Assembly: GCA_944376845.1 (NCBI GenBank)
Contig: CALWDZ010000006.1
Coordinates: 964 to 64,963 of the forward strand
DNA from: an uncultured Clostridia bacterium
GTDB taxonomy: Bacteria; Bacillota; Clostridia; Christensenellales; UBA1242
Direction of reading: 5' to 3'
DNA length: 64,000 nt
The notes below the pieces were generated by a model. It searched no databases and was not told the origin of the DNA. It saw only the letters and a list, made by a program, of their open reading frames with translations. The position numbers were made by a program, and so were the translations under genes. This document shows, in pieces, positions 3,165 to 49,917 of the stretch (position 1 is the stretch's first letter; each line of letters begins with the position of its first letter).

Positions 3165-6100
3165 ATGAAAAAAATAACTTCATACATATTATCGATTTTT
3201 TGTATTTTCACAATGGTGGCATTTTTTGCATGTGGTGAAGAACATAATTTAAAATTGGAGCAAAACTATATTGAAATGTCAATCGGTGACGATTTTGACA
3301 TTTCTTCTATTTTAACGCTTGAAAATATAAATCAAGACGAAGTTTCGTTTCGAGCATTCGACCAAAATGTTGTAACGGTAGAAGACGGAGAGATAACAGC
3401 GGTTGGTGCAGGCACAACTTTTGTTGAAATATCTTGGGAAAATTTGGTGGACAACCTAGAAGTTAAAGTTCTTGGTGAGCCACTAACATTACCGCTTGTA
3501 AGCGGACTTGACTATGATACTCAGAGTGGACAAGTTGTTTGGAACAATGTTTTAGTAAATCAAGGTGGGCAGACCACAATTGCAAACTCCTACACAGTAC
3601 AAATCACAGATAAGCAGGGACAAGCAACAGAAGAAATTGTGTATACAAATTCTTTTGCATTTAACCGGGTTGGAGAATTTTCAATTTCAGTAAAAGCAAA
3701 TGACAATATTCAAAATGGAAATGTTGTTTATTATGGTTCAGAGTATTGCCAGCCAATAAAGGTAAATATTTTAAGTGCACCTTTTAACATAACCTATGAT
3801 GATGAAACAAACACGCTTTCTTGGGATGCCGATGAAAGCATAACAAACTTTAAAGTTATTGTTAACGGACTTTCAAGTGGCATTATATCCACAAATAGTT
3901 ATGTTGTTGACTTGACATCCACAAGTGATGACGCACAAACGATATATAACATACAAGTGCTTAGTACACTATCAACTTCTGAAGAAGATGTTATTTTGGT
4001 TGAAGGTCAAAGTGAGATTAGCACTTTCACAAGACTTTACTCACCAGCACTTTCCATTACAAATGGCTATATAACTTGGGAAAATAATCAAAGTGGAGAT
4101 TTCCACTATGAACTAAGTTATCAAAGTGCTAACGGTACAAATGGCACCGTAACCGTTACCGGCGGGAGATATGAACTTGCAAACATTCCAGCGGGCTTAT
4201 ACACACTTTCACTTAGTGTTGTTGCAAACGGAACGAATTATTTAACAAGTCAAACACCAAGTACACTTTCTGGGGTTGAAAAACTTGCAATTCCTGTACT
4301 TTTATTTGATTACACACAGCGTACTTTAAGTGTTACTGATTATGAGAACAAAGATATACAACTAGAGATTACATATGGTACAGAAACACAAAACATAACA
4401 CTTGAAAATGGCAAGTATGTATTATCTGATTTGCGTGCGGGGACATATACTGTTGTTGCTCGTTCACTAGCGGGTGAGAGTGAACTTGAACTTTCAAGTG
4501 ATTTATCTAATCAATTGACGATTATTCAACTTCCACAAGTTGATTTAGCAAATATAACTCAAAGTGTAGTTGAAGGTAAATATGTTGTAAATTTTGAAAA
4601 ACAAGAAGATTTAACATATACCTTGACATATTTTGACGGAGAAAACACATTTGATTTAAATTTTGACGGCGAAGGCTATGGCAATGTAGATGAAATTTTT
4701 GATGAAGCAAAAGAGTATACAATTACAATTACTACGTCAAAAGAAAATTCAGTACAAGGCACATACTATTTACCATCACAAACAAATATATATCTTGAAA
4801 GGCAGCCTGATGTAGTTTTAAGCGATAACAAGCATTCAAACAATTCTCACACTATAAGTTGGGATGCACAAAATTACGCTAGCGGATATAGTTATATAGT
4901 TACAAAAAACGGCGAACCATTTTATCAAGGTCAAACCAATTTAACATCACTTGACCTACAAAACCTTGAATATGGGCATTATAAAGTGTGTGTCAAAGCA
5001 CTTGGTGGCGATGTCGCAGGGAAATTATATCTTGATAGTTTAAATTATGGCGAATGCAGTTTTGATGTGACTTTACCACTTTCTGCTCCAGAGATTGAGT
5101 TTGATAGAGATAGTTTAACTGCTACAATTTCAAAAGTTGAAAATGCCACAAAATATCTTGTCACCTTAAATGAAGAAGAAATAGAATTTGTTGACAATGG
5201 TGAAACGCTTAGTTTGGACCTTTCAGAAAATTTGGCACTTGCGGGCTCATATGTTTTAAGTGTCACTGCACAAAATGAAGATGAACTGATTTTAGATAGT
5301 GCAGTTAGCACAATCACAATTGTTAAGCACATTGCTCCAAATAATTTCAACATTTCTCAAAGCGGAATAATTAGTATAAATACAGATGTGCCAGCAGAAC
5401 AACTATCGCAGGAAAAGTTTGAGATAAAAATTGGCGATGAAATAACAAATCAAATTGGAAATTTAGGCGAGTATAAAGTAGAAGGCAAACTGGTTGCCAC
5501 AGAACAAATAATAGACAACACATACTATCTTGATAGTGATTATAGCACATTCACGGTACAAAGAGTTCAAACTCCAGACAAACCAGTGCTTGACGAAACT
5601 ATACTTTCATGGCAAGGCATTGATTTACCAAACTTTGAATATTTAGTTTTGTTATACCAAAACGAAAATGTGGCAAGAATTCGTCTAAACACAACCACTC
5701 TTGATGTTCTCAGCGAACTTGTTTCTGGAAATCAAATTGACGCAGCACAAGACTTTAATGCAACCATTACTTATCAATTTACTGGCGCTGATGTTGTAGT
5801 AAATTCAGATACAATTGTGTACTTTACAAGTAGCGAAAGTGAAGCAACAACAGTACATAAAATAAAAAGTGATTTGGCTATGACGGTTTCGGAAAGTGAC
5901 GGAATTGTAACGGCAACTTGGGAAGCAAGCGAAACACCAGATGTCACATACGAACTTACAATTGACGATGATGTAGTTACAACTCAAAATACAACATCTT
6001 TTGGTATTACCACTTATGTTGCTCAGGCAGGGACTTACACACTTAGATTAAAAATAAGTAAACTAGGATACATCTCATCAGAATACATTCAAATTTATGT

Positions 6101-9100
6101 AACAAGACTTGAAAGCGTTGATGAAATTGCTATTGATGAAGATGAAAATGTTGAAGCCATAACAGATTATCAAGTTGACAATGAACTTCAAAATATTCAA
6201 ATTAGAGTAAATGATGAAGATATAACAAATTTATTTGAATTGTCAGGTAAGTTTGATGTTAAAGTTAAACTTATTGCAAAAGTATACAAAAGTGGAGAAA
6301 GATACTTTCTTGACAGTGCTGAAACCACATTTAGTTTTGAAAGAATAAATACTCTTAACACTCCTATGATAGATGAAAGTGGACTTATGTCTTTTGACAG
6401 TGTTAGAGAAATTGAAAGTTATATGCTGAAAATTGCCGCGCAGGACTTAGAGCAAGTTTATGAAACGGCACTTAGCCAAGTTTACATTGATAGCGAAGAT
6501 ATACTCACAATCATTGAAGCACTTGGTGGTTATGATTTCACTGCTAGTGTAAAGGCATATGTTGGAGAGTTTACTATTTCAGCAGGCGAAAGTCATTTCT
6601 TGTCATCATACTATAGTGATACTGTAGATTTCCATAAACTTTATTCGCCACAAAATGTAAAAGTTGTATCAAATGATAGTTCAGATTTCACGCAAGCAGA
6701 AATAAAAGTTTCTTGGGACTATGATTTTGAAAATGCTGATGTTTATGGCTTTAAAATTGATGTTGTAATGGGTGCATCTACAAACTCTTATGAAAGCGTT
6801 AGACAAAGTACTGAGTATATAATTTCAAACGCTCTTCTTAGCGGAGATTATTATGTAGTTATAACAGCACTTGGTCAAAATAACTACATTGATAGCATAG
6901 GCGTGCAATCTCAAACTTTCACACGTCTTAATGCACCACAGAGTTTAGCAATTTCACAAAATGCCGTACTTACATTTATGGGAGCAAATAATGCAAGCGG
7001 ATATGTAATCACTTATACAAACAATGCGGGAGTATCAGGGCAAGTAGAAAGCAGTTCAACAACTGTTGATTTGTCACAGAAACTATACGCAAATGCATTT
7101 AGTGGAAACATTAGTATAAATGTATATGCCAAAGGCAATGGCACATCAACATTTACAAGTCCAAGTAGCCAAACACTTACAGTAACAAAGGCTAAAGAAG
7201 GCGAAATTACTCTTTACACAGATAAACTTGTTGCTGGCTCAACTACAGCCGATACACAAAACTTTGATTATTTAATTACCATAACGCAAAATAATAGAAT
7301 AGTTAAAGAGTTAATTTTAAACTATAGTGATGAATACATATTTGAAGATTTTGCATATCAAGACAACAATCAAAAAGTCAATACAAACATTGATATGGAC
7401 TATGTTGTCACCGTCACAAGAAGATTGAATGATGTAAACTATATATTAAGTGATGAAACAACATATACATTCACAAAACTCGGAAGTGTGCAAAACTTAG
7501 GATTTTTAAAACTTGAAGAAGGCGAAGATGCAACTATATATTTCCGTGCAAACTCAGTCACAAATGCAACAGGCTACTTATTAAAAGTTGGCGATAATGA
7601 AATAACAGATTTGGTTTTCGACAACCAAAATGGATATATTCGTGTTGCAATTACAAATGACATATATACACTTCTTGGCAGCAACTTTACCTTTGAAATT
7701 TATGCAAAAGGTTTAATTGACCAAACGGGCAGCGGTGTAAACTATGTAAATAGTTCTATTACATCCATTTCAGGAACAGTGCTCCCACAGGTTACTGGTT
7801 TTATGGTATCAAATGGCGTACTTGTATGGGATAAAGTTGATGAAGCATTTGACTATGCATTAAATATTGATGGCGAAACCATTTTAACAGATTATGTAAA
7901 TAATGGCGTACACACCTTGACAGAAGACCTTTATGGCAAAAGCGGTGATTTTAAGCTAAACATTAAAGCACTGGGCAATGTTGAAACATCTTTGGTTAGT
8001 CAAAATGTTGTTTTAGACTCACTTTATACAGAAAATTTGGTTTGTTCAAAACTTGAAACAATAAACAATCTTGCCGTGACTAATGGATACATATCTTTCT
8101 CAAAACTTCAAGGTGAAAGTGTGTCATATCAAGGACTTATTAGTGGCAACATATATGACCTTACAGAACAGATGTTAGATGATAATCAACAGGCATTTTC
8201 AACATTCTATAGTGAAGAGATGTATAACTACTTTTCTGACAATGACGTTTATACACTTACAGTTAGGGCGGTTACAGACTTAGATAATGTACTATACAGT
8301 GATCAAAGTTCTTCTATCAAAGTAAAACTTTTGAACAACGATACGGTTGGAAGTTTAAAAGTTACTTTAAAGAAATTAAATAATACATATGACTATACAC
8401 AAAGTTATTTAACTTGGACAGATACACAAACAGCGGAGTTTGGTTATAATCTTCAAATTGACGACACATATCGACCAGTATTCACAACAGAATATCAACT
8501 TGACACCGAAGATGAACCACTTTCAGCAGGTACACATACGGCAAGGATATCTGTTATGGGAAGTGGAGAAGTTGACTCGGATGGAGTTTACAGTTTAAAT
8601 TCAAAACCAGCAGAAGTACTTACATTTACAAAACTTGACACACCAACACCAAGTTTGACAGACGGTCTTTTGTCTTGGGCAACAGTTGGTGGTGCAGGCG
8701 GATATCTATTATACCTAGATGGCAATTTGATTGTTGAAAGTCCGGTTACAAGCGGAAACACCTATAAGTTATCTCCAAAAGACCAAAATGACAACATAAC
8801 ATATGATAGATATGAGGTTCAAGCAGTACCAAGTGCTAACACAAACTATATTGCAAGTACAAAAGGTGTATACACCAATGAGGACGGCACAGATAAGCAA
8901 GTTACACAACTTAGTCCACCAGATATGTTTAGAATACAAGATGGTGCACTAACGTGGGATATAAATCTCGATACTTTTGGCGGACTTGGAGGAATATTAG
9001 GTGGGACAATAAAGGACTTTCTAGATGGAACTGGAACACTTAAATCGCCATTTACCGTAAGTATGGAGAGTTTACAAGATAACCTTCGTGATAGAATAAC

Positions 9101-12100
9101 ACTTAGATTAAGCGGTTCCAGCGGTGTATATGAATATATAGATAGAGCGGCATATTATTGTCTTTTAGATGAAGGACTTTTAACATATATACCTCAAAAT
9201 GTACAAGATATGCTTACTTTCTATGGCTGGCCAAGTTTAAACAACAACTACACAGACTTTGGTTCAGATATTCCAGCGGGACTATATAGTTTATCAATTA
9301 ACCAACTTGGAAATAGTGATGACCAACTTACATCTAATTTTGGTGGAACAAAACAAGTATATATTCCTTATGCACCTGTTGTTAAACTTGTTTACACAGA
9401 CAACAGTTATGTGCTTAGGTGGGATAAAATTACAATTCCAGCAGATTACTATTCAGACGAAGTTAAATACATTGTTTATGGTATCAAAGAAACCATAAAT
9501 GAGTATGAAGAAACTGTAATTGAAAGAGTAATGCTAACAGATGCAGCCGGCATTACAGCAACACAGTTTAATCTTACAGAACTTATACAAGATGGTACAA
9601 TTGACGAAAGTTTTACAAGTTTTGCAGTATATGTTCGTGGCGATAACAATATGGTTTTAAATGGAAAAGTTTCAAACTTTATAACCGTTAGCGTTCTTGA
9701 TGAAACAACAGCATATGTAAGAAATGGTGAACTTTATTGGAATCCACAACAAAGTGCTTCGTCCTATATCGTCACTTATGAAGAAGCGGGGACAGGTACA
9801 TCAAATCAAGTTGTGCTAACCGAAGCATATTGGGATACAAGTGAACTTTCAAGTGATGTTTCTTATTATAATATTTACATCCAAGCCACAGGAGATAGAA
9901 ACCCCGACGGTTCGACAACAAATGTGGTTCTCACTGGTCCAAAGACATTGGTTGGACAACTTACAAAACTTGTTTCACCAAGTCCAGTGGTTGAAAATGG
10001 TATATTCTATTGGGATAATATTGACAACAGCACCTCATACAATGTTTACATTACTCCACAAGATTCCGCTCAAAATATTGTATCAGTGTCAAATGCAGTT
10101 GATGAAAACAATAGAATAAGTTATCAGTCTATAACCTTAGGGCAAAATGTTGAATATACATTCAAGGCAATGGGTGATTTAGACGTTCAACTTTCAGACG
10201 GTGTAACCGCTTATGTAAATTCAGCAGAAAGTGACATAATTTATGCAACACTAGTACCAAGTGTTCAAGATGTGGTTGCAACAAGTGGTGAACTTGTTTG
10301 GGATAAAGTTACAAATTATAACAATGCACTTATAAAGTTTTATCGTGTTGTGCTTCAAAAGATTGATAACAATGGTACACCACTTGACAGTGAAATTATC
10401 TTGACAGGTGATTATACAAGCACAAGCGGTCAGGCGGTTTATAGTTGCTCGGGTCTTGATGCAGGAAGATATCAAGTTGAGGTTTCTGGTTACTTTACTA
10501 CAAGTGACAATTTAGGGAAATATGAGTATAATGGTGAAACTGCCTATTACTTAATGGGTGCTCCAAGCAGTGTTTATACTTTTGAGAAGTATGAAACTGT
10601 TGTAGGTTATGATGAGTCCGGTCTTGTAGACAACATAGTCATTCGTGACGGCGTACTATCTTGGACTTATGGTGGCAACATTGAGAATAGAAATTATGAC
10701 TATGAACTTAGGTTCACCACACCAACAAATGTATTCTCAATTGTAATTGATGAAGAAACTTATTCTGGAGCAATTGTTAATGCACTTGTAGTGCCTGGAA
10801 CAATTGAACTTGAAATAAGAGTGGTTGCAAGAGAAGGACTTGAAGGTCAAGGCTATGTAAATTCTGAATATTTACAGTTTGTAAATGTAAATCACAGCGA
10901 TTCACCTTATATCTATCAACTTGACGGAATTCAAGATAATCAAATTAGGCTTGGAACAGTAGGAGAAAGCGAAGACCTTCATATCATTTGGGATAGTTAT
11001 ACTGCTACTTCAAATTCAAATATTGCCGACATAGATGTTCAGTATTTGGTGACATACTACACCAGCCTAGACACAACACCACGCACTAAAATTATAGATA
11101 CACCTTACATAAGCACAACAGAATTTAACTATTCAATAAATGAGTCATACACACTTTATTATACAATAACTGTACTTCCACTTGGAGATGAAAGTTATGT
11201 TGCATCTTATCCTTCATCTGTTCGTGAAATACAAAAACCCGAATCAGTTGCAGAAGTTACATACAATGCTACAGAAATGTACTTTACATGGCCAACTGAG
11301 GGTACATCTACAGACCACGTATTTAGAATAAAAGATGAAGTGCTTGCAGTTGATGAAGATGGGGATATTATCTATCAAAATGGTGAACCTGTTGTACTTA
11401 GAACATATTTATTCACAACATCAGATAACACGACAAATAGATATTATCCAGTTGAAATGGGCGCACATAAAGTGTCAGTTGCTGTTGTTGTTAAAAATAG
11501 TACGGGCATTGACGGCAGTTTGACATCAGATTATACTTACTACTACGACCCAGTACTTGAACCAGACAATGAACTTGTTGGTACAGCGGTTACAATCAAC
11601 TTATTCAAAGTCACAGCAACATCAGTTGATGTATATGGCGGAATGGGAACAAGTGATAACCCATATTTAATAGAAACATCTCAGCATTTTGCAAATATTA
11701 TGTACAGGCTTAACAAACCTGAGTATGAAAATAGTTATACACTTACAGTAAACGACTCAGATACACATGTAACATTGACTGATGAAGATAGATATTTCCA
11801 TTTCAAACAAATTGCTGACCTTGCAGGTGTTGCACCACTTGGAGCGAATGAAATAATTGAATTTACAGCAATTTATGATGGTGATATGCATTCAATCACA
11901 TGGGAATACGATTTAAGAAATATTTCCACATCACAGTCTATGCGTCAATATGTTGCATTGTTTGGGAATATAGCAGAGCAGTCTGCGGTAAGAAATCTTA
12001 GAGTTTATGTAGACCTTGTAACACAAATGGTTACTGGTTCTACTGTATCGCTTGTAGCGTTTGAAAACTACGGAACTATCGACAATATAGTTTTGGGAGC

Positions 12101-12899
12101 AGAAGGCAGTTCACTTAGCATTCAAACCCAATATATAATCAGTGTTTATGGTGTTGCGTATACAAACCGTGGTACTATTTCAAATATTATAAATTACTAT
12201 AGCATGGATCTTAGAAATACAACAAGTTCAGCAGGTACACGAGCAAACTTTGCACTTGTTGGTACAAATTATGGTACAGTTGATATGGTCGCAAATTATG
12301 CAGATATTTATCTTCAAACCACTTTGACATCAAGTGCGGGTATAGTTGCTACAAATCGTGGTACTGTGCTAAGAGCGGTATTTACAGGCGATGTAACACT
12401 CAATATTGCTAGAGATAATCAAGGTTCAATAGATTTTGTATTCGGCGGAATTGTAGGAACAAACACTTCGGGAACAATCAGTTATGCATACACAATTTCA
12501 AATATGACCATTGCAAGAAGTGCACGTGCTACATCAAACGAAACGGTGAGAATAGCAGGACTTGTTGGCTCGTCCAACAACGGAAATATTACCTCTGCGT
12601 ATGTAAGTGTAGATATTTCGGCGACAACAACCATAGGCAGAACAGGTGATATTGCACTATTTATTGCAAATGTAACAACTGTTTCTTCATCACAAGAAAC
12701 TGTAACAAGATTTGCAAATTCGTCTAGTGAATATTCCGCAGTGCTTGGAACAAGTGCAACAAACTTCCAAGTTGACACATATCAAACAGTTCCTTCAGGG
12801 CTTGCACTCAATGGTTCATATCCATACTTTACAATGAATGAAAATAATTTCCCAGTTCTTGTATTTGAAGCATCGCTTAAAGGCTCGTGGGGACTATAA
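3165..12899 (+). CDS. Giant (3244 aa) lipoprotein-anchored surface protein: Big_2-like domain, roughly two dozen FN3/Ig-like modules, C-terminal GLUG-motif beta-helix-like region
   Basis: Signal peptide with lipobox (..MVAFFAC|GEE). The N-terminus has a Big_2-like segment (VVTVEDGEITAVGAGTTFVEISW). ~90-100-aa modules recur with the pattern 'L..P..i....g.isW......Y.v'. The C-terminal ~600 aa starts 'GTSDNPYLIETSQHFANI' and carries repeated G-L/I-V-G..N.G.I motifs (RIAGLVGSSNNGNITSAYV). AGGAG RBS upstream and a strong terminator after the stop. Confidence 0.85.
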   Translation: MKKITSYILSIFCIFTMVAFFACGEEHNLKLEQNYIEMSIGDDFDISSILTLENINQDEVSFRAFDQNVVTVEDGEITAVGAGTTFVEISWENLVDNLEVKVLGEPLTLPLVSGLDYDTQSGQVVWNNVLVNQGGQTTIANSYTVQITDKQGQATEEIVYTNSFAFNRVGEFSISVKANDNIQNGNVVYYGSEYCQPIKVNILSAPFNITYDDETNTLSWDADESITNFKVIVNGLSSGIISTNSYVVDLTSTSDDAQTIYNIQVLSTLSTSEEDVILVEGQSEISTFTRLYSPALSITNGYITWENNQSGDFHYELSYQSANGTNGTVTVTGGRYELANIPAGLYTLSLSVVANGTNYLTSQTPSTLSGVEKLAIPVLLFDYTQRTLSVTDYENKDIQLEITYGTETQNITLENGKYVLSDLRAGTYTVVARSLAGESELELSSDLSNQLTIIQLPQVDLANITQSVVEGKYVVNFEKQEDLTYTLTYFDGENTFDLNFDGEGYGNVDEIFDEAKEYTITITTSKENSVQGTYYLPSQTNIYLERQPDVVLSDNKHSNNSHTISWDAQNYASGYSYIVTKNGEPFYQGQTNLTSLDLQNLEYGHYKVCVKALGGDVAGKLYLDSLNYGECSFDVTLPLSAPEIEFDRDSLTATISKVENATKYLVTLNEEEIEFVDNGETLSLDLSENLALAGSYVLSVTAQNEDELILDSAVSTITIVKHIAPNNFNISQSGIISINTDVPAEQLSQEKFEIKIGDEITNQIGNLGEYKVEGKLVATEQIIDNTYYLDSDYSTFTVQRVQTPDKPVLDETILSWQGIDLPNFEYLVLLYQNENVARIRLNTTTLDVLSELVSGNQIDAAQDFNATITYQFTGADVVVNSDTIVYFTSSESEATTVHKIKSDLAMTVSESDGIVTATWEASETPDVTYELTIDDDVVTTQNTTSFGITTYVAQAGTYTLRLKISKLGYISSEYIQIYVTRLESVDEIAIDEDENVEAITDYQVDNELQNIQIRVNDEDITNLFELSGKFDVKVKLIAKVYKSGERYFLDSAETTFSFERINTLNTPMIDESGLMSFDSVREIESYMLKIAAQDLEQVYETALSQVYIDSEDILTIIEALGGYDFTASVKAYVGEFTISAGESHFLSSYYSDTVDFHKLYSPQNVKVVSNDSSDFTQAEIKVSWDYDFENADVYGFKIDVVMGASTNSYESVRQSTEYIISNALLSGDYYVVITALGQNNYIDSIGVQSQTFTRLNAPQSLAISQNAVLTFMGANNASGYVITYTNNAGVSGQVESSSTTVDLSQKLYANAFSGNISINVYAKGNGTSTFTSPSSQTLTVTKAKEGEITLYTDKLVAGSTTADTQNFDYLITITQNNRIVKELILNYSDEYIFEDFAYQDNNQKVNTNIDMDYVVTVTRRLNDVNYILSDETTYTFTKLGSVQNLGFLKLEEGEDATIYFRANSVTNATGYLLKVGDNEITDLVFDNQNGYIRVAITNDIYTLLGSNFTFEIYAKGLIDQTGSGVNYVNSSITSISGTVLPQVTGFMVSNGVLVWDKVDEAFDYALNIDGETILTDYVNNGVHTLTEDLYGKSGDFKLNIKALGNVETSLVSQNVVLDSLYTENLVCSKLETINNLAVTNGYISFSKLQGESVSYQGLISGNIYDLTEQMLDDNQQAFSTFYSEEMYNYFSDNDVYTLTVRAVTDLDNVLYSDQSSSIKVKLLNNDTVGSLKVTLKKLNNTYDYTQSYLTWTDTQTAEFGYNLQIDDTYRPVFTTEYQLDTEDEPLSAGTHTARISVMGSGEVDSDGVYSLNSKPAEVLTFTKLDTPTPSLTDGLLSWATVGGAGGYLLYLDGNLIVESPVTSGNTYKLSPKDQNDNITYDRYEVQAVPSANTNYIASTKGVYTNEDGTDKQVTQLSPPDMFRIQDGALTWDINLDTFGGLGGILGGTIKDFLDGTGTLKSPFTVSMESLQDNLRDRITLRLSGSSGVYEYIDRAAYYCLLDEGLLTYIPQNVQDMLTFYGWPSLNNNYTDFGSDIPAGLYSLSINQLGNSDDQLTSNFGGTKQVYIPYAPVVKLVYTDNSYVLRWDKITIPADYYSDEVKYIVYGIKETINEYEETVIERVMLTDAAGITATQFNLTELIQDGTIDESFTSFAVYVRGDNNMVLNGKVSNFITVSVLDETTAYVRNGELYWNPQQSASSYIVTYEEAGTGTSNQVVLTEAYWDTSELSSDVSYYNIYIQATGDRNPDGSTTNVVLTGPKTLVGQLTKLVSPSPVVENGIFYWDNIDNSTSYNVYITPQDSAQNIVSVSNAVDENNRISYQSITLGQNVEYTFKAMGDLDVQLSDGVTAYVNSAESDIIYATLVPSVQDVVATSGELVWDKVTNYNNALIKFYRVVLQKIDNNGTPLDSEIILTGDYTSTSGQAVYSCSGLDAGRYQVEVSGYFTTSDNLGKYEYNGETAYYLMGAPSSVYTFEKYETVVGYDESGLVDNIVIRDGVLSWTYGGNIENRNYDYELRFTTPTNVFSIVIDEETYSGAIVNALVVPGTIELEIRVVAREGLEGQGYVNSEYLQFVNVNHSDSPYIYQLDGIQDNQIRLGTVGESEDLHIIWDSYTATSNSNIADIDVQYLVTYYTSLDTTPRTKIIDTPYISTTEFNYSINESYTLYYTITVLPLGDESYVASYPSSVREIQKPESVAEVTYNATEMYFTWPTEGTSTDHVFRIKDEVLAVDEDGDIIYQNGEPVVLRTYLFTTSDNTTNRYYPVEMGAHKVSVAVVVKNSTGIDGSLTSDYTYYYDPVLEPDNELVGTAVTINLFKVTATSVDVYGGMGTSDNPYLIETSQHFANIMYRLNKPEYENSYTLTVNDSDTHVTLTDEDRYFHFKQIADLAGVAPLGANEIIEFTAIYDGDMHSITWEYDLRNISTSQSMRQYVALFGNIAEQSAVRNLRVYVDLVTQMVTGSTVSLVAFENYGTIDNIVLGAEGSSLSIQTQYIISVYGVAYTNRGTISNIINYYSMDLRNTTSSAGTRANFALVGTNYGTVDMVANYADIYLQTTLTSSAGIVATNRGTVLRAVFTGDVTLNIARDNQGSIDFVFGGIVGTNTSGTISYAYTISNMTIARSARATSNETVRIAGLVGSSNNGNITSAYVSVDISATTTIGRTGDIALFIANVTTVSSSQETVTRFANSSSEYSAVLGTSATNFQVDTYQTVPSGLALNGSYPYFTMNENNFPVLVFEASLKGSWGL

Positions 12900-12907
12900 A
12901 ATAAAAA

Positions 12908-12938
12908 AATCATACCTAAACAAAGGTATGATTTTTTT
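12908..12938 (+). terminator. Rho-independent terminator of the giant surface-protein gene
   Basis: Hairpin aatcatacct / aggtatgatt (12908-12917 / 12924-12933) followed by a T7 run. Confidence 0.8.
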
Positions 12939-15900: not shown

Positions 15901-16375
15901 ACGTTCTGTCCCTTCGCCTTACCTTCTGTCTTTCTGAGCCTTACCTTCGTGATGTGTCATTCTGAGCGTAGCGAAGAATCTCTTTAAGTCAAGAAATCCA
16001 GCGGATTTCTTCCATAGAGTCACGGCATCGTCAGAACCTACGCATATGGGCTAAAAATTGCTAGACGCAATTTGTATCGCCTTAATGCTTGGTTCTTCCT
16101 CTCCCCAAAAAGTTTCCATAGGTACTTTTTGGGGGCCCCGAAAAAGCAACGCAGTGCGGTTTTCGTTTGGCCGTGAGAAAAAGGGCACAAAACAAGCAAC
16201 AAGCACTACATTTTGCCGTTACTAAGGCAAAATTGTGCCGAAAGCGCGGTTTTTGCCCAGTGTCATTCTGAGCCGAAGGCGAAGAATCTCGAGACCCTTC
16301 GCTTCGCTCAGGGTGACACGGATTTGTGTTATTTTACGCTCAGGGTGACATCGGGTTGATTTTTTAAATGCTTAA
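15901..16375 (+). repeat. Intergenic mosaic repeat cluster (A-type 15956-15982 and 16260-16319; B hairpin 15991-16011; D-type 16046-16150; C module 16234-16259)
   Basis: It shares modules with 1-41, 2905-3010 and 14451-14560. 16260-16319 is a ~25-bp-stem hairpin (gtgtcattctgagccgaaggcgaag .. cttcgcttcgctcagggtgacac). Confidence 0.85.
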
Positions 16376-26352: not shown

Positions 26353-27924
26353 ATGCTACAAGTAAGTAATGTAACGTTGCAGTTCGGTGGGAGAGTTTTG
26401 TTTAAAGATGTAAATCTAAAATTCACTAAAGGTAACTGCTATGGCATAATTGGTGCAAATGGCGCAGGCAAGTCCACATTTTTGAAAATACTTACTGGTG
26501 AACTTGAGCCAAACAAAGGCGAAGTCATACGTGACGAAAAAGAGCGTATGAGTGTTTTGATGCAAAATCAAAATGCTTATGATAACCATACTGTGCTTGA
26601 AACGGTGCTACTTGGTCATAAAAGACTTATGGAGATTGCTAAACAAAAAGAAGAACTATACTCAAAGCCAGACTTTTCAGAAGCAGATGGTATGCTTGCG
26701 GGCGAACTTGAAACAGAGTATGCGGAACTTGGCGGTTGGGAAGCAGATAGTGAAGCGAAAACTCTTCTTAAAAGTATAGGTATAGATGAAGATTGCTTTG
26801 AAAAAAAGATGAGTGAAATGGACTCAAAACAAAAAGTCAAAGTGTTGCTTGCTCAGGCACTGTTTTTGAATCCAGATATTCTTATTCTAGACGAACCAAC
26901 CAACAACCTTGACTTTAAAACTACAAGGTGGCTTGAAGAATATCTTTTGAACTTTGAGAACACAGTCATCATTGTGTCGCATAACCGTCACTTTTTAAAT
27001 AAAGTTTGTACGCATATTTGCGATGTCGACTATGGTCAAATAAATATGATGCTTGGTAACTATGACTTTTGGTACGAAACCAACCAACTTCTTCAAAAAC
27101 AAGCAAAGGACCAAAACAAAAAGGCGGAACAAAGGGCAAAAGAACTTAAAGACTTTATTGCACGTTTTAGTGCAAATGCCTCCAAAGCAAAACAGGCAAC
27201 AAGTAGAAAAAAAGAACTTGAAAAACTTACACTCGATGACTTCAAAATTTCTTCAAGACGTTATCCATACATTGATTTTAAATATGAACAAGAGATTGGC
27301 AAAGAAATTTTAATAGTAAAAAATCTCACAAAAAAAGGTTTTTTTGAAAATCTCAGTTTTTCTGTTGGGCGTGATGACAAAATAGTTTTTTTGGCAAACA
27401 ACAGTCTTGCAATTACCAAACTTTTTGATATACTCATGGGCAAAGAGGTGGCTGATAGTGGAACGGTCAATTGGGGCAAAACAATAAAAGCCACATATCT
27501 TCCACAAGATAACCGTGAATATTTTGAAGGCAAGTCGGAAAGTTTAGTCGATTGGCTTAGACAATATTCAAAAGAACAAAACGAAACATATATTCGTAGT
27601 TGGCTAGGACGTATGCTCTTTTCTGGTGAAGAAGCATTAAAACCAGTCAATGTACTTTCTGGTGGCGAAAAGGTTAGGTGTATGTTTGCCAAAATGATGC
27701 TTGAAAGTGGAAACTTTATAATTATGGATGAACCAACAAACCACCTAGACCTTGAGTCCATAACTGCACTCAATAAAGGTATGATAAACTTTAAAGGATG
27801 TATGCTCTTTACCACTCATGACCAAGAGATTGTTGAAACTGTTGCAAACAGGGTCATAGATATTGTTGATGAGCATACAATAAGGGATAAGATGATGACT
27901 TATTCCGAATACATGAATTTCTAG
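26353..27924 (+). CDS. ABC-F family ATPase (two ABC domains, no TM domain; ribosome-associated type)
   Basis: 523 aa. Two Walker A sites (GANGAGKST; second one degenerate), two signature motifs (MSEMDSKQK / LSGGEK), two Walker B sites (ILILDEPTN / FIIMDEPTN), and a charged inter-domain linker. Confidence 0.9.
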   Translation: MLQVSNVTLQFGGRVLFKDVNLKFTKGNCYGIIGANGAGKSTFLKILTGELEPNKGEVIRDEKERMSVLMQNQNAYDNHTVLETVLLGHKRLMEIAKQKEELYSKPDFSEADGMLAGELETEYAELGGWEADSEAKTLLKSIGIDEDCFEKKMSEMDSKQKVKVLLAQALFLNPDILILDEPTNNLDFKTTRWLEEYLLNFENTVIIVSHNRHFLNKVCTHICDVDYGQINMMLGNYDFWYETNQLLQKQAKDQNKKAEQRAKELKDFIARFSANASKAKQATSRKKELEKLTLDDFKISSRRYPYIDFKYEQEIGKEILIVKNLTKKGFFENLSFSVGRDDKIVFLANNSLAITKLFDILMGKEVADSGTVNWGKTIKATYLPQDNREYFEGKSESLVDWLRQYSKEQNETYIRSWLGRMLFSGEEALKPVNVLSGGEKVRCMFAKMMLESGNFIIMDEPTNHLDLESITALNKGMINFKGCMLFTTHDQEIVETVANRVIDIVDEHTIRDKMMTYSEYMNF

Positions 27925-28315
27925 ACTTTCAAAAATCGGCGTGATACTTTGTTCCTGTCGGGCAACTCTCACACAGTCACGTACGCTTTGTACGCTCCTG
28001 CGTGAGAGTACCCGCCGAGCCTCGTCTCACTTGTTTTTTGAAAGTCTATTTTTTAGATGTCTGTAAAAAGCGTCACAATACTTCGTTTGCTGTCAAGCAG
28101 GTTCACACAGTCATTTAGCAAACTAAACTCCTGCGTGAACCCACTTGCCGAGCCTCGTCTTGCTTGCTTTTTGCCAGTTTATAGCAAGTGGGGAAGCAAA
28201 ATTGTGGTTATGTATCCACGGCGTGATACTTTGTTCCTGTCGGGCAACTCTCACACAGTCATTTTTTGTCATTCTGAGTGTGGCTTCCTTGACGGCTGAC
28301 GAAGAATCTCATTTT
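27924..28315 (+). repeat. Intergenic mosaic repeat cluster: E-type long palindromic units (27924-28046, ~28066-28172, truncated 28222-28265) plus an A-type unit (28268-28310)
   Basis: ..ctgtcgggcaactctcacacagtca..ctcctgcgtgagagtacccgccgagcctcgtc.. recurs here and at 37668-37798 and 38168-38205. Unit 1 is closed by gactttcaaaaa / tttttgaaagtc. Confidence 0.85.
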
Positions 28316-28348
28316 TATTAAAAAAACACTTCTATGAAAGTGCTTTTT

Positions 28349-28543
28349 TTATTCTATCAAATCTTCAAATATAATTCCTAAAGTTTTGAGTATCTTCACA
28401 ATGTTAGAAAGTGTTGGTTCAATTTTGCCACACTCCCATTCACTTACTCTTTGCTGAGTTGTACCTATTTTTTTGGCAAACTCACTTTGACTTAATTTAT
28501 TTGCTATTCTTAATTGTTTCAAGTTTTCTGCGAAGTTATTCAT
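28349..28543 (-). CDS. XRE-family (Cro/C1-type) HTH transcriptional regulator
   Basis: 64 aa. 'LKQLRIANKLSQSEFAKKIGTTQQRVSEWECGKIEPTLSNIVKI' is a canonical HTH_3. Confidence 0.8.
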   Translation of the reverse strand: MNNFAENLKQLRIANKLSQSEFAKKIGTTQQRVSEWECGKIEPTLSNIVKILKTLGIIFEDLIE

Positions 28544-33680: not shown

Positions 33681-33715
33681 AAAAAAATACTCGTAACAAT
33701 TACGAGTATTTTTTT
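33681..33715. terminator. Bidirectional rho-independent terminator
   Basis: Hairpin atactcgtaa / ttacgagtat (33687-33696 / 33700-33709) flanked by A7 and T7, between convergent genes. Confidence 0.8.
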
Positions 33716-36208: not shown

Positions 36209-37669
36209 ATGGAACAACAACTTTCAAATGAAATAGATGTAAGAAGAAATAAAATCGAAACTCTAAAAAAAGAAGGAGTTATTGTATACAAAGACAAGTT
36301 TGAACGCACTCATAAGATAAGCGAAGCAAGAAAACTTTCTGACGGCGAAAAAGTAAAAGTTTGTGGAAGAATGGTTTTTCGCAGAGTTATGGGTAAGTTC
36401 GGTTTTATGCAAATTCGCGATTTAGAAGATAAAATTCAAGTTAGTGTTGGTATAAATGAATTAAATGATGTGGACTATGACTTTTATAAAAAAATGATAG
36501 ACATTGGCGATTTTGTCGGCGTGGAAGGCGAAATATACCACACTCAAACAGGCGAAATAACTGTAAAAGCATACAGTGTGACACTGCTTAGTAAGGCACT
36601 TCGCCCACTACCAGAAAAGTTCCATGGGCTTGTTGACCAGGAAGCAAAATATAGGCAAAGATATCTTGACCTTATATCAAATCAAACCGCTCGCGATGTT
36701 TTCTTGGGCAGAAGCAAAGTGCTTGCATTCATTAGAAAATTTTTAGGCGAAAATGGCTTTTTGGAAGTTGAAACCCCAATTCTTCAATCGGCAGTTTGTG
36801 GTGCTTCGGCAAAACCTTTTATGACACATCACAATGCACTTGACAAACAGTGTAATCTTCGTATTGCACCAGAAACTTATTTAAAACAGGTTATTGCAGG
36901 TGGTTTTGATAGAGTTTTTGAAGTTGCAAAATGTTTTAGGAATGAAGGTATGGACACACAGCACTTGCAAGAATTTACAATGGTTGAGTGGTATGCATCA
37001 TATTGGAATTTTGAGGATAATATCCGTCTTTATACTAAATTTATTCAAGAACTTTTAATGGAAGTTAAAGGCAGTCTTGAAATTGAATATCAAGGTCAAA
37101 AACTTGATTTTTCTGGTGAGTGGAAGAGAATAAACTATGTTGAAGAAATGCAAAAGGTTTTAGGTTTTGACTTCTTAAAGTGCGAAACTCGTGACGAACT
37201 TGTTACAGAAGTTGTAAATCGTAAACTTTTTGAAGCCTCAGATTTTGAAGGAATAAACACACTTGGCGGAGTTATAGATTATATTTATAAACGTAAAATT
37301 CGTGAAAATATTATTCAGCCAACTATTTTATATAACTATCCAGCGTGTCTAATTCCGCTTGCAAGAAGAAATGATAAAAACAATAAAATAATAGATGTTT
37401 TCCAAGTGCTTTGCATGGGTAGTGAACTTTGCAAGGCTTACAGCGAACTTGTTGACCCAATAGTCCAGCGCGAAGAACTTGAAAAACAAGCCAGAGCAAA
37501 ACTTGGCGGAGATGACGAGGCGATGGAACTAGATGAAGATTTTGTTCTTGCCATGGAACATGGTATGCCACCAATTTCAGGTCTTGGCTTTGGTGTTGAT
37601 AGGCTTATGATGTTCCTCTTTAATCAGGAATCTATAAGGGATGTAGTTCTCTTCCCCCTCATGAAGTAA
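36209..37669 (+). CDS. lysS: Lysine--tRNA ligase (class II)
   Basis: 486 aa. 'RQRYLDLI', 'FLEVETPIL', 'CFRNEGMDTQHLQEFTMVEWY', 'GLGFGVDRLMMF'. It starts 1 nt after the aspS stop. Confidence 0.95.
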   Translation: MEQQLSNEIDVRRNKIETLKKEGVIVYKDKFERTHKISEARKLSDGEKVKVCGRMVFRRVMGKFGFMQIRDLEDKIQVSVGINELNDVDYDFYKKMIDIGDFVGVEGEIYHTQTGEITVKAYSVTLLSKALRPLPEKFHGLVDQEAKYRQRYLDLISNQTARDVFLGRSKVLAFIRKFLGENGFLEVETPILQSAVCGASAKPFMTHHNALDKQCNLRIAPETYLKQVIAGGFDRVFEVAKCFRNEGMDTQHLQEFTMVEWYASYWNFEDNIRLYTKFIQELLMEVKGSLEIEYQGQKLDFSGEWKRINYVEEMQKVLGFDFLKCETRDELVTEVVNRKLFEASDFEGINTLGGVIDYIYKRKIRENIIQPTILYNYPACLIPLARRNDKNNKIIDVFQVLCMGSELCKAYSELVDPIVQREELEKQARAKLGGDDEAMELDEDFVLAMEHGMPPISGLGFGVDRLMMFLFNQESIRDVVLFPLMK

Positions 37670-38447
37670 AAAACACAAAATTGTGGGCGTCTGCGTCGTT
37701 TGCTGTCGGGCAACCCTCACACAGTCATTTGGGTGACCAAACTCCTGCGTGAGGGTACCCGCCGAGCCTAGCATCCGCCACGCAATTTTGTGTTTTTTGT
37801 TAGATTGAGCCTCGTTGTCGGGGCTATTATTGTATTTTATGAATAAGTACAGAGTACACTCAAGTTGGTTCGCACCGTTCTTTTTTGCCTTTTCCGCTTA
37901 CTTTTGCCTATTTTTTCTAGTTTTTATGATTATTTTAGTATTATTTTGTCATTCTGAGGCACCAAAGGTGCCGTGAGAATCTCAACATTTATAAATTTTA
38001 CGTGGCTTGATACCCCGAGCCTAGCATCCGTCACACAATTTTGTGTTTTTTGTTAGATTGAGCCTCGTTATCGGGGCTATTTTTGTGTTTTACTATTATG
38101 TACTCCTACTTTATCTATTTTGTATATTATTTTAATTTCTATAAACTCAACAGTTATTCATAATAGCCAAACTCCTGCGTGAGGGTACCCGCCGAGCCTA
38201 GCATCCGCCACACAATTTTGTGTTTTTTGTTAGATTGAGCCTCGTTATCGGGGCTATTTTTGTGTTTTACTGTTATGTACTCCTACTTTGGTCTATTTTT
38301 TCTAGTCTTTATGGTTATTTTAGTATTATTTTGTCATTCTGAGGCACCAAAGGTGCCGTGAGAATCTCAACTGATTTGAGTTGGTATTTTGCTTTTTGTT
38401 TAAAACACTTGCTAAATAATTCTAGATGTTTTATACTAACTATGTTA
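37668..38447 (+). repeat. Mosaic/tandem repeat region (E-type 37668-37798 and 38168-38205; F-type 37762-37828, 38015-38081, 38192-38258; A-type 37948-37983 and 38333-38368)
   Basis: There are three copies of ccgagcctagcatccg(c/t)cac(g/a)caattttgtgttttttgttagattgagcctcgtt(g/a)tcggggctatt. There are two copies of ..ttttctagt(t/c)tttatg(a/g)ttattttagtattattttgtcattctgaggcaccaaaggtgccgtgagaatctcaac. Confidence 0.9.
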
Positions 38448-44317: not shown

Positions 44318-45442
44318 ATGGGTCTTTTTAATTTTATAAAAAAACAATTACTTGAAGTCATTGAGTGGAAAGATAGTTCAAAGGATACAATCGTTTATCG
44401 TTTTCCATTAACTGATAGAGATGAAATAATGACATCATCTACTTTGGTTGTTCGTGAAAGCCAAGTGGCAATATTTGTCCATAAAGGTGAAGTGGCAGAT
44501 GTTTTTCAGCCAGGTACATACAAACTTTCAACCGAGAACATACCATTTTTAACAAAAATTTTATCACTTCCAACAGGGTTTGAATCACCAATAAAGGCAG
44601 AAGTATATTTTGTCAACACAAAGCAGTTTGTTGGGCAAAAGTGGGGCACACAAAACCCAATAATGATGCGTGATAGCGAGTTTGGAACGGTTAGACTTCG
44701 TGGCTTTGGTGTTTATTCATTTAGAGTTAGTGATGCAAAACTTTTTATGAAAGAAGTTTTTGGTACAAATGAAGTTTATAAAGTTGAAGATGTTGCAACC
44801 CAAATCAAACCTATGCTCATTCAAGCAGTAACTGATGCAATTGCAGAAAGCAAAATTTCCGCCATTGACCTTGCTGCAAACTATAGAGAGTTTTCAAATG
44901 AAATTTTGAAATCTAGCGAACTTGAATTTTCAAAGTACGGGCTTAAACTTTGTAGCGTTGTAATTGAAAATCTTTCACTTCCAGAAGATGTTGAAAAGGC
45001 TCTTGACGAAAGGACAAAACTTGGAGTGCTTGAAGATAAAATGGGTACATACACTCAATATCAAGCGGCACAAGCAATACGTGATGCTGCACAAAATGAA
45101 AGCGGTGGAAATCTTGCTGGGCTTGGTGTAGGACTTGGTGCGGGTACAACCATTGGCGGAGTTTTTGCAAATAACATAACAACAGAAAATAAGCCAAAGG
45201 AAAAAACCACAACTTGTGAAAAATGCGGTGCCAAAATGCGTGAAGGTGCAAAGTTCTGCCCAGAGTGTGGAGCACCTCAAGGTGCTGTTTGTCCAAAATG
45301 TGGAAAGGCGGTTTCCAAAAATGCAAAGTTCTGCCCAGAATGCGGTGAGAATTTGAAAAAAGAAATAGTGTGCAAAAAGTGTGGTGCAAAAATTAAAAAA
45401 GGTGCAAAGTTCTGTCCAGAATGTGGCACAAAAGTGGAATAA
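44318..45442 (+). CDS. SPFH/band-7-like protein with three C-terminal zinc-ribbon repeats (YdjI/COG4260-like)
   Basis: The start is set at MGLFNFIKKQ.. with AAGGAGAA RBS (the track ORF begins at 44261). The N-terminal ~300 aa resemble YdjI-type SPFH proteins. The C-terminus has 3x 'C.KCG...(K/R).(G/N)AKFCPECG'. Confidence 0.7.
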   Translation: MGLFNFIKKQLLEVIEWKDSSKDTIVYRFPLTDRDEIMTSSTLVVRESQVAIFVHKGEVADVFQPGTYKLSTENIPFLTKILSLPTGFESPIKAEVYFVNTKQFVGQKWGTQNPIMMRDSEFGTVRLRGFGVYSFRVSDAKLFMKEVFGTNEVYKVEDVATQIKPMLIQAVTDAIAESKISAIDLAANYREFSNEILKSSELEFSKYGLKLCSVVIENLSLPEDVEKALDERTKLGVLEDKMGTYTQYQAAQAIRDAAQNESGGNLAGLGVGLGAGTTIGGVFANNITTENKPKEKTTTCEKCGAKMREGAKFCPECGAPQGAVCPKCGKAVSKNAKFCPECGENLKKEIVCKKCGAKIKKGAKFCPECGTKVE

Positions 45443-47875: not shown

Positions 47876-47905
47876 AAAATACCACTCTTGCAAGAGTGGT
47901 ATTTT
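47876..47905. terminator. Perfect 30-bp palindrome / bidirectional terminator
   Basis: aaaataccactcttg|caagagtggtatttt. It lies downstream of the - strand transposase gene. Confidence 0.6.
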
Positions 47906-47982
47906 GCTAAAAAGACTGAGATAAGCATATTTGTTGTAGCAAGAAAAAGCGTGCAAATGCAAGCCTATTTTACCAATATAAA

Positions 47983-49002
47983 TTATGCTATCGCTTTAAG
48001 ATAAGTATCAAATAATTGCCCTGATGTTGCATAACCTAGAACTTGACGCGGGTAATTATTTACCCAATCTTCAACTTTCTGAATATCATCAGCGGAGTAT
48101 TTAGACAAATCACGCCCTTTTGGAATAAGTCGGCGAATTTCACGATTAAGCCGTTCATTTGTGCCACGCTCACAAGAGCAATAAGGATGACAATAGTATA
48201 CACTTGTGCGTTTACTTTTTCCATAAATAGATTTCTCTAAGCCAACGAAATCAGCAAACTCACTACCATTGTCAACCGTTATAGACTTAAACACTTGTTT
48301 GAATTTTTTGCCAAAGCGTCTTTCAAGTTTGTTCAAACACTGTACAACACTTTCAGCCTTTTGATTTTCCATTTTAAAAATTATTTCTTTTCGAGTAAGA
48401 CGTTCACTCAAAACCAACAAAGCAGACTTTGTAGAACCACACACACAGTCCATTTCCCAATGCCCAAATGTTTTACGTTCTTTTATATCAATAGGGCGTT
48501 TCTCAATAGAAGTGCCTTTTGGTGCACGTTTAATTACTTTACGATAAGTTTTTTGTTTTCGTTTACCAAGTTTTAAGTTTGAAAAAATACCAATTTGAAT
48601 ATATCTATAAAGCGTTGTTTTGCTAATTGAAGTTTTAAAGTTAAGTTTATCGTGTTTAATTTGCCCAAGAACAGCACAAGCAGAAATCTTATCTTTTTTG
48701 ACACGATTTTCAACATAACGAACAAACTCAAAGTCATTACCAACTTTGAGCGGTCTACCTTTCCCAGTACATAAGTTATTATATCGTTGTTGTGCAACAT
48801 CCGCACCATAAGAAATATAATAGTCCCAAGTACTACCATTCAATTTCTTATATGCACCACGTTTTAATTCATAGTAGAGTGTACGAAGTCCAATTCCTAC
48901 AGTTGAAGCAATCTCTTTTTTATCAACTTTGGCATTCATTAGTGTTTCAATTTTAACACGCTGAGTGTATGTCAAATTTTTATGACCTTTTCTATTGTTC
49001 AT
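47983..49002 (-). CDS. IS30-family DDE transposase
   Basis: 339 aa. N-terminal HTH (..RTLYYELKRG..) and a DDE core with 'HWEMDCV', 'ITVDNGSEF' and 'YYCHPYCSCERGTNERLNREIRRLIPKG', the IS30 signature spacing. Confidence 0.9.
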   Translation of the reverse strand: MNNRKGHKNLTYTQRVKIETLMNAKVDKKEIASTVGIGLRTLYYELKRGAYKKLNGSTWDYYISYGADVAQQRYNNLCTGKGRPLKVGNDFEFVRYVENRVKKDKISACAVLGQIKHDKLNFKTSISKTTLYRYIQIGIFSNLKLGKRKQKTYRKVIKRAPKGTSIEKRPIDIKERKTFGHWEMDCVCGSTKSALLVLSERLTRKEIIFKMENQKAESVVQCLNKLERRFGKKFKQVFKSITVDNGSEFADFVGLEKSIYGKSKRTSVYYCHPYCSCERGTNERLNREIRRLIPKGRDLSKYSADDIQKVEDWVNNYPRQVLGYATSGQLFDTYLKAIA

Positions 49003-49090
49003 TGTTATGTTCTCCTAAAAATAAAATAACATAAAAAATTTTACAAATCAAACAGGTTATTGTACAATATTTGACAAGGAGATATAAAAA

Positions 49091-49837
49091 ATGGCAGAGA
49101 AACAAAACGACAAACATACCTGTATTTTATGTGGGAAAAAAATAAGAAGTAATTATACATATTGTAAAGATTGCTATTACAATGTTCAAGAGAGAATACT
49201 AGAACTAGACGGACAAAATCAATCACCAATAAAATTAAGAGATTATTACTATAATGCAAAAGACTATGCACTAAGAACAAATAACGAAAACAAAGTTTAT
49301 TACCAAAAACTAACAATGTCTGCGATAGCAAATCTCTTAGTAGAAGTAAGTGATGATGACGATTTGAAATGCAGATTAGAAAAAGACTTCAAAACAATAG
49401 ATAAAAGTATCGTTGAAAAACAACAAAGACCACAAACAAAAGAAAAAATTAATATTGAAACAAAAGAACAGCCAAATAAAAGGACACAAGATGGACACTA
49501 TGTGATGAGCGACCTAGAAGTACGAGTTGATGACGCTATCTACAGTTTAGGCTACGCACACGCCTACGACATTAAAGTCGCAGAAATAACAGAACGTGCC
49601 GTTCAATGTGATTGGTATATACCTGTAACATTTACTGACGGAATATATATTGAATTATGGGGAGTCAACAATGACAGTAAATACGAAAGGAATAAAGAAG
49701 AAAAAATTGAATTGTACCAAAAACACAAACTTCACCTAATACAAATAGAATACGATGAAGCAAAAAACGATACGTCCAGACTGATGAGTATGTTAAAAGC
49801 CAGAATAAAAGAAGAAATAAACGAAATAAAAAAGTGA
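49091..49837 (+). CDS. Zinc-ribbon protein with a C-terminal PD-(D/E)xK-nuclease-like domain (putative)
   Basis: 248 aa. N-terminal 'CILCGKKI....CKDCYY'. The C-terminus '..SDLEVRVDDAIYSLGY....CDWYIP....GIYIELWGV....Y..NKEEKIELYQKHKLHLIQIE' resembles the S..E / D-(F/W)-Y / E-x-W-G nuclease pattern. GGAGAT RBS. Confidence 0.45.
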   Translation: MAEKQNDKHTCILCGKKIRSNYTYCKDCYYNVQERILELDGQNQSPIKLRDYYYNAKDYALRTNNENKVYYQKLTMSAIANLLVEVSDDDDLKCRLEKDFKTIDKSIVEKQQRPQTKEKINIETKEQPNKRTQDGHYVMSDLEVRVDDAIYSLGYAHAYDIKVAEITERAVQCDWYIPVTFTDGIYIELWGVNNDSKYERNKEEKIELYQKHKLHLIQIEYDEAKNDTSRLMSMLKARIKEEINEIKK

Positions 49838-49858
49838 TAAACTATGCTTAAGAGTATT

Positions 49859-49917
49859 AGGCGACCCCTTGTCATATAACAAGTGCCACGCGGTGCGTGG
49901 CAGACAAGGGGTCGCCT
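49859..49917. other. GC-rich two-tier stem-loop (candidate origin / recombination site)
   Basis: Perfect 15-bp outer stem aggcgaccccttgtc / gacaaggggtcgcct (49859-49873 / 49903-49917). It encloses atataacaag plus a perfect 8-bp inner hairpin tgccacgc-ggt-gcgtggca (49884-49902). There is no adjacent U-tract. Confidence 0.6.

Follow-up and report, generated by a model that had tools for sequence, protein, structure and literature searches.

REP/BIME sequences and REPINs of Enterobacteria and Pseudomonas are extragenic, multi-copy imperfect palindromes, grouped in mosaic arrays at gene 3' ends, whose hairpins persist through compensatory changes; REP/BIME are thought to stabilise the upstream mRNA, to terminate transcription weakly and to bind factors at the DNA level. 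ERIC/IRU elements (127-bp imperfect palindromes), pneumococcal BOX and RUP are modular, geneless and form long imperfect hairpins in transcribed intergenic regions, and the Correia elements (CREE) of Neisseria are 100–150-nt hairpins, co-transcribed with their neighbours, that can act as terminators or as RNase III substrates. The attC sites of integrons are 57–141-nt imperfect palindromes lying directly 3' of open reading frames (ORFs) in the same orientation, with conserved structure and with unpaired bases that mark the active strand. Here we describe the E-type family, a hairpin-forming intergenic repeat of ~105–130 nt, in a 64-kb stretch of an uncultured Clostridia bacterium (Christensenellales, UBA1242; GCA_944376845.1, contig CALWDZ010000006.1, positions 964 to 64,963; hereafter the window, whose coordinates are used throughout). 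With moderate confidence, we read it as a lineage-restricted set of REP/BIME/ERIC/BOX-like modular palindromic repeats at terminator sites, transcribed as 3' untranslated region (3' UTR) and retained as a terminator or 3'-end protector, with an apex bound by a putative factor.

The original prediction, made from the sequence of the window, had recognised three full units, two behind an ABC-F gene and one behind lysS; its coordinates and stem strings were all correct, and partial copies now add to its count (Table 1). The core stem is ctctcac/gtgagag in unit 1 (27966–72/28002–08), ggttcac/gtgaacc in unit 2 (28100–06/28135–41) and ccctcac/gtgaggg in unit 3 (37714–20/37749–55), while the outer stem is cggg/cccg in units 1 and 3 and caag/cttg in unit 2. 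The outermost arms are inverted repeats, as proposed, exact over 14 nt in unit 1 (TAGACTTTCAAAAA/TTTTTGAAAGTCTA, 27922–35/28035–48, followed by TTTTTT) and over 16 nt in unit 3 (AAAAAACACAAAATTG/CAATTTTGTGTTTTTT, 37668–83/37783–98). The TAG stop codon of the ABC-F gene (27922–27924) supplies the first three bases of the unit 1 hairpin, and with the lysS ORF ending at 37669 the stop codons of both genes lie within or touching the hairpin bases of units 1 and 3, where the prediction had them start. Compared with shuffled sequences, the three units fold with z = −3.7 to −8.4 on the plus strand and −6.9 to −9.3 on the minus strand (0 of 200 shuffles folded as well), and the conserved blocks are commoner in the window than in any of 100 shuffles.

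A search of GTDB representative genomes with the exact core pattern found 14 loci, all in gut metagenome-assembled genomes (MAGs) of uncultured Clostridia, of 'Christensenella sp. UBA1242/UBA5893' and of one uncultured Lachnospiraceae. Two covariance models, R1 for the core and R2 for the long form, run on those loci and on loci fetched via lysS relatives (loci are given as L numbers), added more than 20 divergent copies, for ~35 copies in all beyond the window. Viral contigs lacked the exact core, neither INPHARED phages nor PLSDB plasmids yielded a match, and JGI metagenome contigs gave one real further locus, sampled twice, plus three chance matches. Logan short-read contigs carrying the window's exact LysS and ABC-F (sample ERR4096478; L001 and L026) stop 30 and 42 nt past the stop codons, ending inside E-type units, as expected of an assembly graph that runs into a multi-copy repeat. 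The family is multi-copy and confined to related uncultured gut Christensenellales-like MAGs, and no description of the E-type core strings or of Christensenellales hairpin repeats was found in the full-text literature. In one MAG (L009, 6840–6860), a run of ~17 G near the contig end, just past an E-type array, is probably an assembly or sequencing artefact.

In a full unit, an A-run and a T-run surround an outer stem that varies by locus or subfamily, conserved internal-loop blocks follow (AAYACTTYGTTTNCTG on the 5' side, YGAGCCTYGTYTT on the 3' side), a middle stem covaries freely, and the apex is nearly invariant, with an 8-bp stem carrying a fixed A·C mismatch, a TCA/CTC 3×3 loop and a 5-bp mini-hairpin. 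Every copy in the window is of flank type A, the type with these loop blocks; type B copies carry another 3' block, TTATTCTTTGYCTGA, and retain only the apex, as a simple interrupted hairpin. The blocks that the prediction had called single-stranded-looking are so only in part, since CACAG and CTGCG pair as the apex stem (with its one fixed A·C) while TCA and CTC are unpaired; and the supposedly constant aaactcctgc reads cgctcctgc in unit 1, because AAA belongs to the variable mini-hairpin.

Comparison of copies strongly supports that pairing has been maintained through double substitutions. Across 27 core copies, 95.8% of cells are Watson–Crick pairs, and both sides have changed in 14 of 16 pairs (94 cells); none of 500 shuffles matched these statistics, and sliding the register dropped pairing to 22–44%. 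In 18 long-form copies, 26 of the 35 pairs predicted by RNAalifold are compensated. Divergent copies extend the pattern, with TCAC/GTGA in the core stem replaced by CTAG/CTAG, CTCC/GGAG or TTGC/GCAA, and CAG/CTG by TAG/CTA or CAC/GTG. Throughout the 27-copy set there is no variation in the A17·C46 mismatch or in the loops TCA (5') and CTC (3'); one later copy outside that set has a TTA/CGC loop. The proposal that a structure, and not sequence alone, is maintained had been staked on covariation holding up as copies were added, and the signal became stronger, not weaker.

Conserved unpaired nucleotides between covarying helices, in multiple copies per genome, resemble the alignments of small ribozymes. 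That the units are a small self-cleaving ribozyme or an independently transcribed small RNA family is nevertheless very improbable in our view: an Rfam search of the window returned two tRNAs only at the gathering threshold and left the units unmatched even at E ≤ 10, including by hammerhead, twister, pistol, hatchet, HEARO and IS605-associated RNAs; the units have no conserved site resembling a promoter, only unit 2 having a 9-of-12 match, at shuffle background; and the type B copies, reduced to the apex, hold too few conserved positions for a known catalytic core. The option of a small non-coding RNA family, one of three first put forward, found no support, and no signal of an independent transcription unit was seen. 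Two other candidates were rejected, namely promoter mimicry in the apex (only a weak match, in unit 2 alone) and an antisense mini-ORF with a Shine–Dalgarno-like AGGAG, spotted by eye and not kept in divergent copies.

Wobble pairs give contradictory evidence as to which strand matters. G-U pairs are nearly absent from the variable stems of the 27 core copies (1 of 426 cells), and in the variable arms G·T and A·C mismatches are about equally frequent. The antisense strand of units 1–3 folds 7–16 kcal/mol better than the sense strand, and on it the fixed A·C and the TCA/CTC loop become a G·U and tandem G·A; two invariant U·G pairs in the GUUU/GAGC helix pair on the sense strand only. Structure conservation alone is no proof of RNA function.

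Of 19 gene-adjacent loci, 17 have a first unit that runs in the direction of the upstream gene and lies right up against its stop codon, which bears out the predicted tie to gene 3' ends. In most of the 17 the core lies 45–55 nt after the stop (range 33–55 nt), placing the hairpin base within a few to ~10 nt of the stop, and in the clear cases of convergent genes it is the co-oriented gene that the unit abuts. The exceptions are a full reversed copy in L029, which follows a normal terminator and lies 5' of an SLT-domain gene, and the window's reversed degenerate copy. Readthrough of the stop with in-frame translation, as in Rickettsia palindromic elements, was considered and rejected: frames 0, 1 and 2 occur in 7, 9 and 3 loci, and the peptides are unrelated. 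Ordinary terminators of the host genome have the form A-run/stem/loop/stem/T-run and lie 4–7 nt past stops (e.g. 12903–12938 and 33681–33715); the E-type units share both this A-run/stem/T-run frame and the post-stop site. Hairpin and T-run are present and sense-oriented at stops, while a simple terminator scanner flags only short GAGCC-type hairpins.

The first units are followed by arrays of partial copies. Truncation points drawn from the R2 model were uninformative, the matches being forced to full length, and conserved blocks were counted instead: orphan 3' blocks (GAGCCTHG) number ~23 and orphan 5' blocks ~4. In ~9 of the orphan 3' blocks GAGCC pairs as the 5' arm of a short hairpin with a T-run behind it (GAGCC-N8-10-GGCTC or a variant of this), and three hairpins of this type, with ordinary terminator shape, stand behind the window's lysS; the 5' arm of the one at 37808–37825 is a reused E-type block, GAGCCTCG. 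The excess of 3' over 5' blocks, together with the sense orientation, is our main reason for favouring a role in termination or at the 3' end for the parts retained, and the 3'-UTR or terminator element among the options first proposed fits as far as position, orientation and these terminator-like 3' fragments go. Behind the ABC-F gene, the 5' half-copy breaks off after CACAGTCA, where an unrelated mini-repeat, TGTCATTCTGAG...GAATCTC, begins, and the terminator that closes this region also serves a convergent helix-turn-helix gene (28349–28543).

What stands behind a given gene differs even between close strains. In L021, whose LysS is 99% identical to that of the window, another long hairpin family lies directly past the lysS stop, followed by a degenerate E copy (11597–11700) that is also the window's degenerate copy at 38137–38230; in L022 (LysS 94%) only that other hairpin family is found behind lysS, with no E-type unit; and in L024 (LysS 91%) the lysS stop is not followed by any repeat, while ABC-F is closed by a plain short terminator. 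Lineages at 83% and 80% LysS identity have an E unit right behind lysS, and L027 and L028 have identical LysS, yet their first units differ and their arrays are rearranged. The rpsG–fusA spacer holds a unit in three species, where overall identity is 64–69%, compared with 63–73% at third codon positions, and the conserved blocks and pairing persist despite this divergence. Subfamily variants also recur at unrelated loci of different MAGs: unit 2 is 92.6% identical to L012, and the mini-hairpins of L004 and L014 are identical. What emerges is a picture of repeat nests that persist for long at certain gene ends while their content is exchanged fast, and recombination, gene conversion or re-insertion fits it better than slow evolution in place.

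A second explanation is a dedicated cis-acting 3'-UTR RNA motif. The sense transcript would fold into the rod, and a trans factor such as an RNA-binding protein or RNase would bind or process its invariant apex and internal loops and so set the stability, processing or termination of the upstream mRNA. The strict sense co-orientation and adjacency to the stop codon are what it would predict, as are the invariant unpaired nucleotides between covarying stems, the sense-only U·G pairs, and the occupation of the rpsG–fusA and lysS sites in several species, with divergence near the third-codon rate and conserved blocks intact. We consider it unlikely all the same: so low a G-U content is unusual for an RNA family, the fixed A·C would be a G·U only on the antisense strand, Rfam holds no match, close strains lack the unit or carry the other hairpin family at the same gene, and copies are truncated, tandemly duplicated and mosaic, with two reversed.

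Several observations hint at mobility. Two type B loci (L006 and L008) have the whole element in common, including its ends GTCAAAAATGGGG...CCCCATTTTTGAC, inside different 6–7-bp palindromes (TTCGTAA/TTACGAA and CCAACC/GGTTGG), as though they had entered the loops of short hairpins already in place. In one array a locus-specific 3' flank (TTTGCCGAATTATAT) is repeated after every unit, though not as a duplication of fixed length, and several partial copies begin at a single point, (A)GTCA. All of this, along with gain and loss at the strain level, could be explained by a strict non-autonomous transposable element (a miniature transposable element with inverted repeats (MITE), a REPIN or an IS200/IS605-type element) whose enzyme, encoded elsewhere, recognises the apex in single-stranded DNA and inserts into terminator hairpins. 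The near-absence of G-T pairs fits pairing at the DNA level, and the asymmetric mismatches could mark the active strand, as in attC sites or IS608 hairpins. We hold this to be quite unlikely, as the outer ends differ between subfamilies and so offer a DDE transposase no terminal inverted repeats, target sites show no consistent duplication, each unit has one recognition hairpin, unlike IS200/IS605 ends or REPIN doublets, neither a Y1/HUH transposase nor a RAYT was seen in the window or the annotated loci, and the window's rve transposase and replication protein sit in a separate island without an E-like hairpin. Of the terminator-targeting MITE first suggested, gain, loss and swapping and the two copies inside palindromes remain, while its terminal repeats, target-site duplication and cognate transposase, the last sought in the window and annotated loci, were not found.

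Modular palindromic repeats retained at terminator sites, working like REP/BIME, ERIC, BOX or Correia elements, remain the reading we prefer. Units would spread by insertion into terminator-like hairpins, or by recombination or gene conversion between them, and would be transcribed as 3' UTR; there the sense hairpin and T-run may end transcription or shield the 3' end, allowing the units to persist. The hairpin would be kept by selection on propagation, on terminator or 3'-end function, or on both, and the invariant apex would be the binding site of a putative factor. Several points weigh against this reading. First, no mobilising enzyme came to light: neither the window nor the Pfam-annotated loci yielded a Y1/HUH transposase, a RAYT or an integron integrase, the window proteins scanned gave no Y1_Tnp or OrfB match, and no tyrosine recombinase was found in the window. 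Second, there is no consistent target-site duplication at units 1–3 or at other loci. Third, conserved terminal inverted repeats are lacking, the outermost arms differing completely between copies and subfamilies. Fourth, a pure terminator role leaves the invariant A·C mismatch and the pyrimidine loop unexplained, both of which weaken the sense hairpin. Fifth, units also occur within the rpsG–fusA–tuf cluster of three species, where efficient termination would require a downstream promoter. Lastly, the E units behind lysS at 80–83% identity could reflect long-term retention at a site instead of mobility.

A bolder possibility concerns the apex itself. Because the apex stays while the flanking pairs covary, and because several partial copies start at one apex point, it might be the recognition site of a putative strand-specific enzyme or RNA-binding protein, which would make the family either a new class of mobile element homing to terminator hairpins or a new, widespread 3'-UTR signal of Christensenellales-like bacteria; we regard this as speculative and improbable.

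Table 1. E-type units, partial copies and associated genes and terminators in the window.
Feature	Position	Strand	Evidence or remark
Degenerate partial copy, reversed	~2800–2890	−	Starts AGTCA-mini-hairpin-CTCC, ends in GCGAGCCTCGCCTCACTTGTTTTT 3' block
ABC-F family ATPase gene	26353–27924	+	ORF list; Pfam ABC_tran x2 + ABC_tran_Xtn
Unit 1, full long hairpin	27922–28048	+	−51.8 kcal/mol, z = −6.8; R2 model 100.8 bits
Unit 2, full long hairpin, different subfamily	28066–28172	+	R2 model 106.2 bits
5' half-copy	28219–28261	+	100% identical to 27937–27979 (unit 1)
Bidirectional canonical terminator (A-run/stem/loop/stem/T-run)	28316–28346	.	Sequence; closes ABC-F 3' region
lysS (lysine--tRNA ligase)	36209–37669	+	TAA stop overlaps the start of unit 3
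Unit 3, full long hairpin	37668–37798	+	−66.9 kcal/mol, z = −8.4; R2 model 103.9 bits
Short terminator-like hairpin AGCCTCG-TTGT-CGGGGCT	37808–37825	+	Recurs at 38061–38078 and 38238–38255
Orphan 3' fragment (CCCGAGCCTAGCATCCGTCACACAATTTTGTGTTTTTT)	~38014–38053	+	—
Copy, 5' half decayed, 3' half intact	38137–38230	+	22.4 bits

The window holds other repeat families as well. A second, very abundant mini-repeat of ~30–50 nt, TGTCATYCTGAG-(variable hairpin)-(C)GAAGRATCTC, occurs at 14450, 14527, 15955, 16261, 26163, 28264–28312, 37946–37986 and 38331–38371, and reversed at 14564 and 43302. It has compensatory changes of its own (ATTCT/AGAAT versus ATCCT/AGGAT), cuts short the third E-type copy at a GTCATT microhomology common to both, and also fills the lysS–tRNA-Val spacer of the related strain L022. 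The other long-hairpin family, AATAGGCAAAATTAGG...GCCTTTTCCGC..TTTTGCCTATT, stands directly behind the lysS stop in sister strains, with full copies at 11462–11585 in L021 and 11462–11585 in L022, and the window keeps only its 3' half (37846–37915). A 73-nt intergenic repeat with hairpin arms CCCCAAAAAGT...ACTTTTTGGGG is found at 2926–2998 and 16067–16139 (85% identical), and before a single ORF of 3244 amino acids (3165–12899) comes a 470-nt spacer rich in repeats, in which the reversed degenerate E-type copy lies. Within a coding region, three in-frame 52-nt direct repeats (45219–45426) probably encode repeated zinc-ribbon (CxxC) modules, since the syntenic L022 gene, a presumed orthologue, has Band_7, DZR and Zn_Ribbon domains.

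An island at 47900–59600, adjoining tRNA-His (60068–60144), is made up of minus-strand genes and has a lower G+C and a reversed GC skew. Encoded in it are an rve/DDE transposase (47983–49002; phrog_4646, E = 1e-107), a rolling-circle Rep-like protein (50099–51082; Pfam REP_ORF2-G2P/Phage_GPA) and a large coiled-coil protein bearing Listeria-Bacteroides repeats, and several of its ORFs lack a family match; the island looks like an integrated plectrovirus- or inovirus-like prophage or another integrative element. A link between the E-type units and this transposase or Rep protein was considered and rejected, as there are no shared ends and no E-like hairpin in the island.

If our preferred reading is right, uncultured AT-rich gut Clostridia have filled their terminator sites with a structured repeat of fast turnover. 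In practical terms, short-read assemblies break at the E-type repeat, exactly where genes end, and the repeat could be used as a marker of strains. Conceptually, it offers a clean natural case of hairpin-preserving evolution in which an asymmetric invariant apex points to a putative binding factor; should that factor be found, as a transposase-like enzyme or as an RNA-binding protein, it would show how the repeats spread and why they sit behind stop codons.

Among the described systems, REP/BIME come close, being likewise extragenic and multi-copy, arranged in mosaic arrays at gene 3' ends and built on compensated hairpins. The E-type units differ from them in being single rods of 105–130 nt, whereas REPs measure 20–40 nt and a REPIN is an inverted REP doublet; their 5' end lacks a conserved (GTAG-type) tetranucleotide, and the conserved blocks are instead TCACACAGTCA/CTCCTGCGTGA and the ACTTCGTTT/GAGCCT loops. 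Unlike REP and REPIN, they abut the stop codon, the members of an array are all in direct orientation, and no RAYT was seen in the window or annotated loci. With ERIC, BOX and RUP they share similar length and modular build, no sequence relationship being expected, and the hosts belong to other clades than the Christensenellales-like gut MAGs. RUP and other MITE-like elements have conserved ends, the opposite of a near-invariant apex with variable ends, and in Correia elements 26-bp terminal inverted repeats are conserved and the target TA is duplicated, features that E-type units lack.

The remaining comparisons concern sites and structures. In attC the outer R''(RYYYAAC) and R'(GTTRRRY) boxes are conserved and the centre varies, the reverse of the E-type pattern; attC sites adjoin cassettes, while E-type units adjoin housekeeping genes (rpsG, fusA, lysS), with no intI near them. 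IS200/IS605 elements carry subterminal hairpins at both ends, on the same strand, and have a TnpA/TnpB partner, whereas the E-type unit has one recognition-type hairpin, in its centre. Intrinsic (Rho-independent) terminators of the host share with the units their site, 0–10 nt after the stop, as well as their A-run/stem/T-run frame, and orphan 3' modules form short hairpins of ordinary terminator type; compared with these, a full E-type unit has at least 100 extra nt, conserved loops and an invariant apex, and the stem beside its T-run is often AT-rich. Elements of this kind are known; what is new is the family itself, the clade that hosts it, its abutment to the stop codon and its inverted conservation, with the centre fixed and the ends free.

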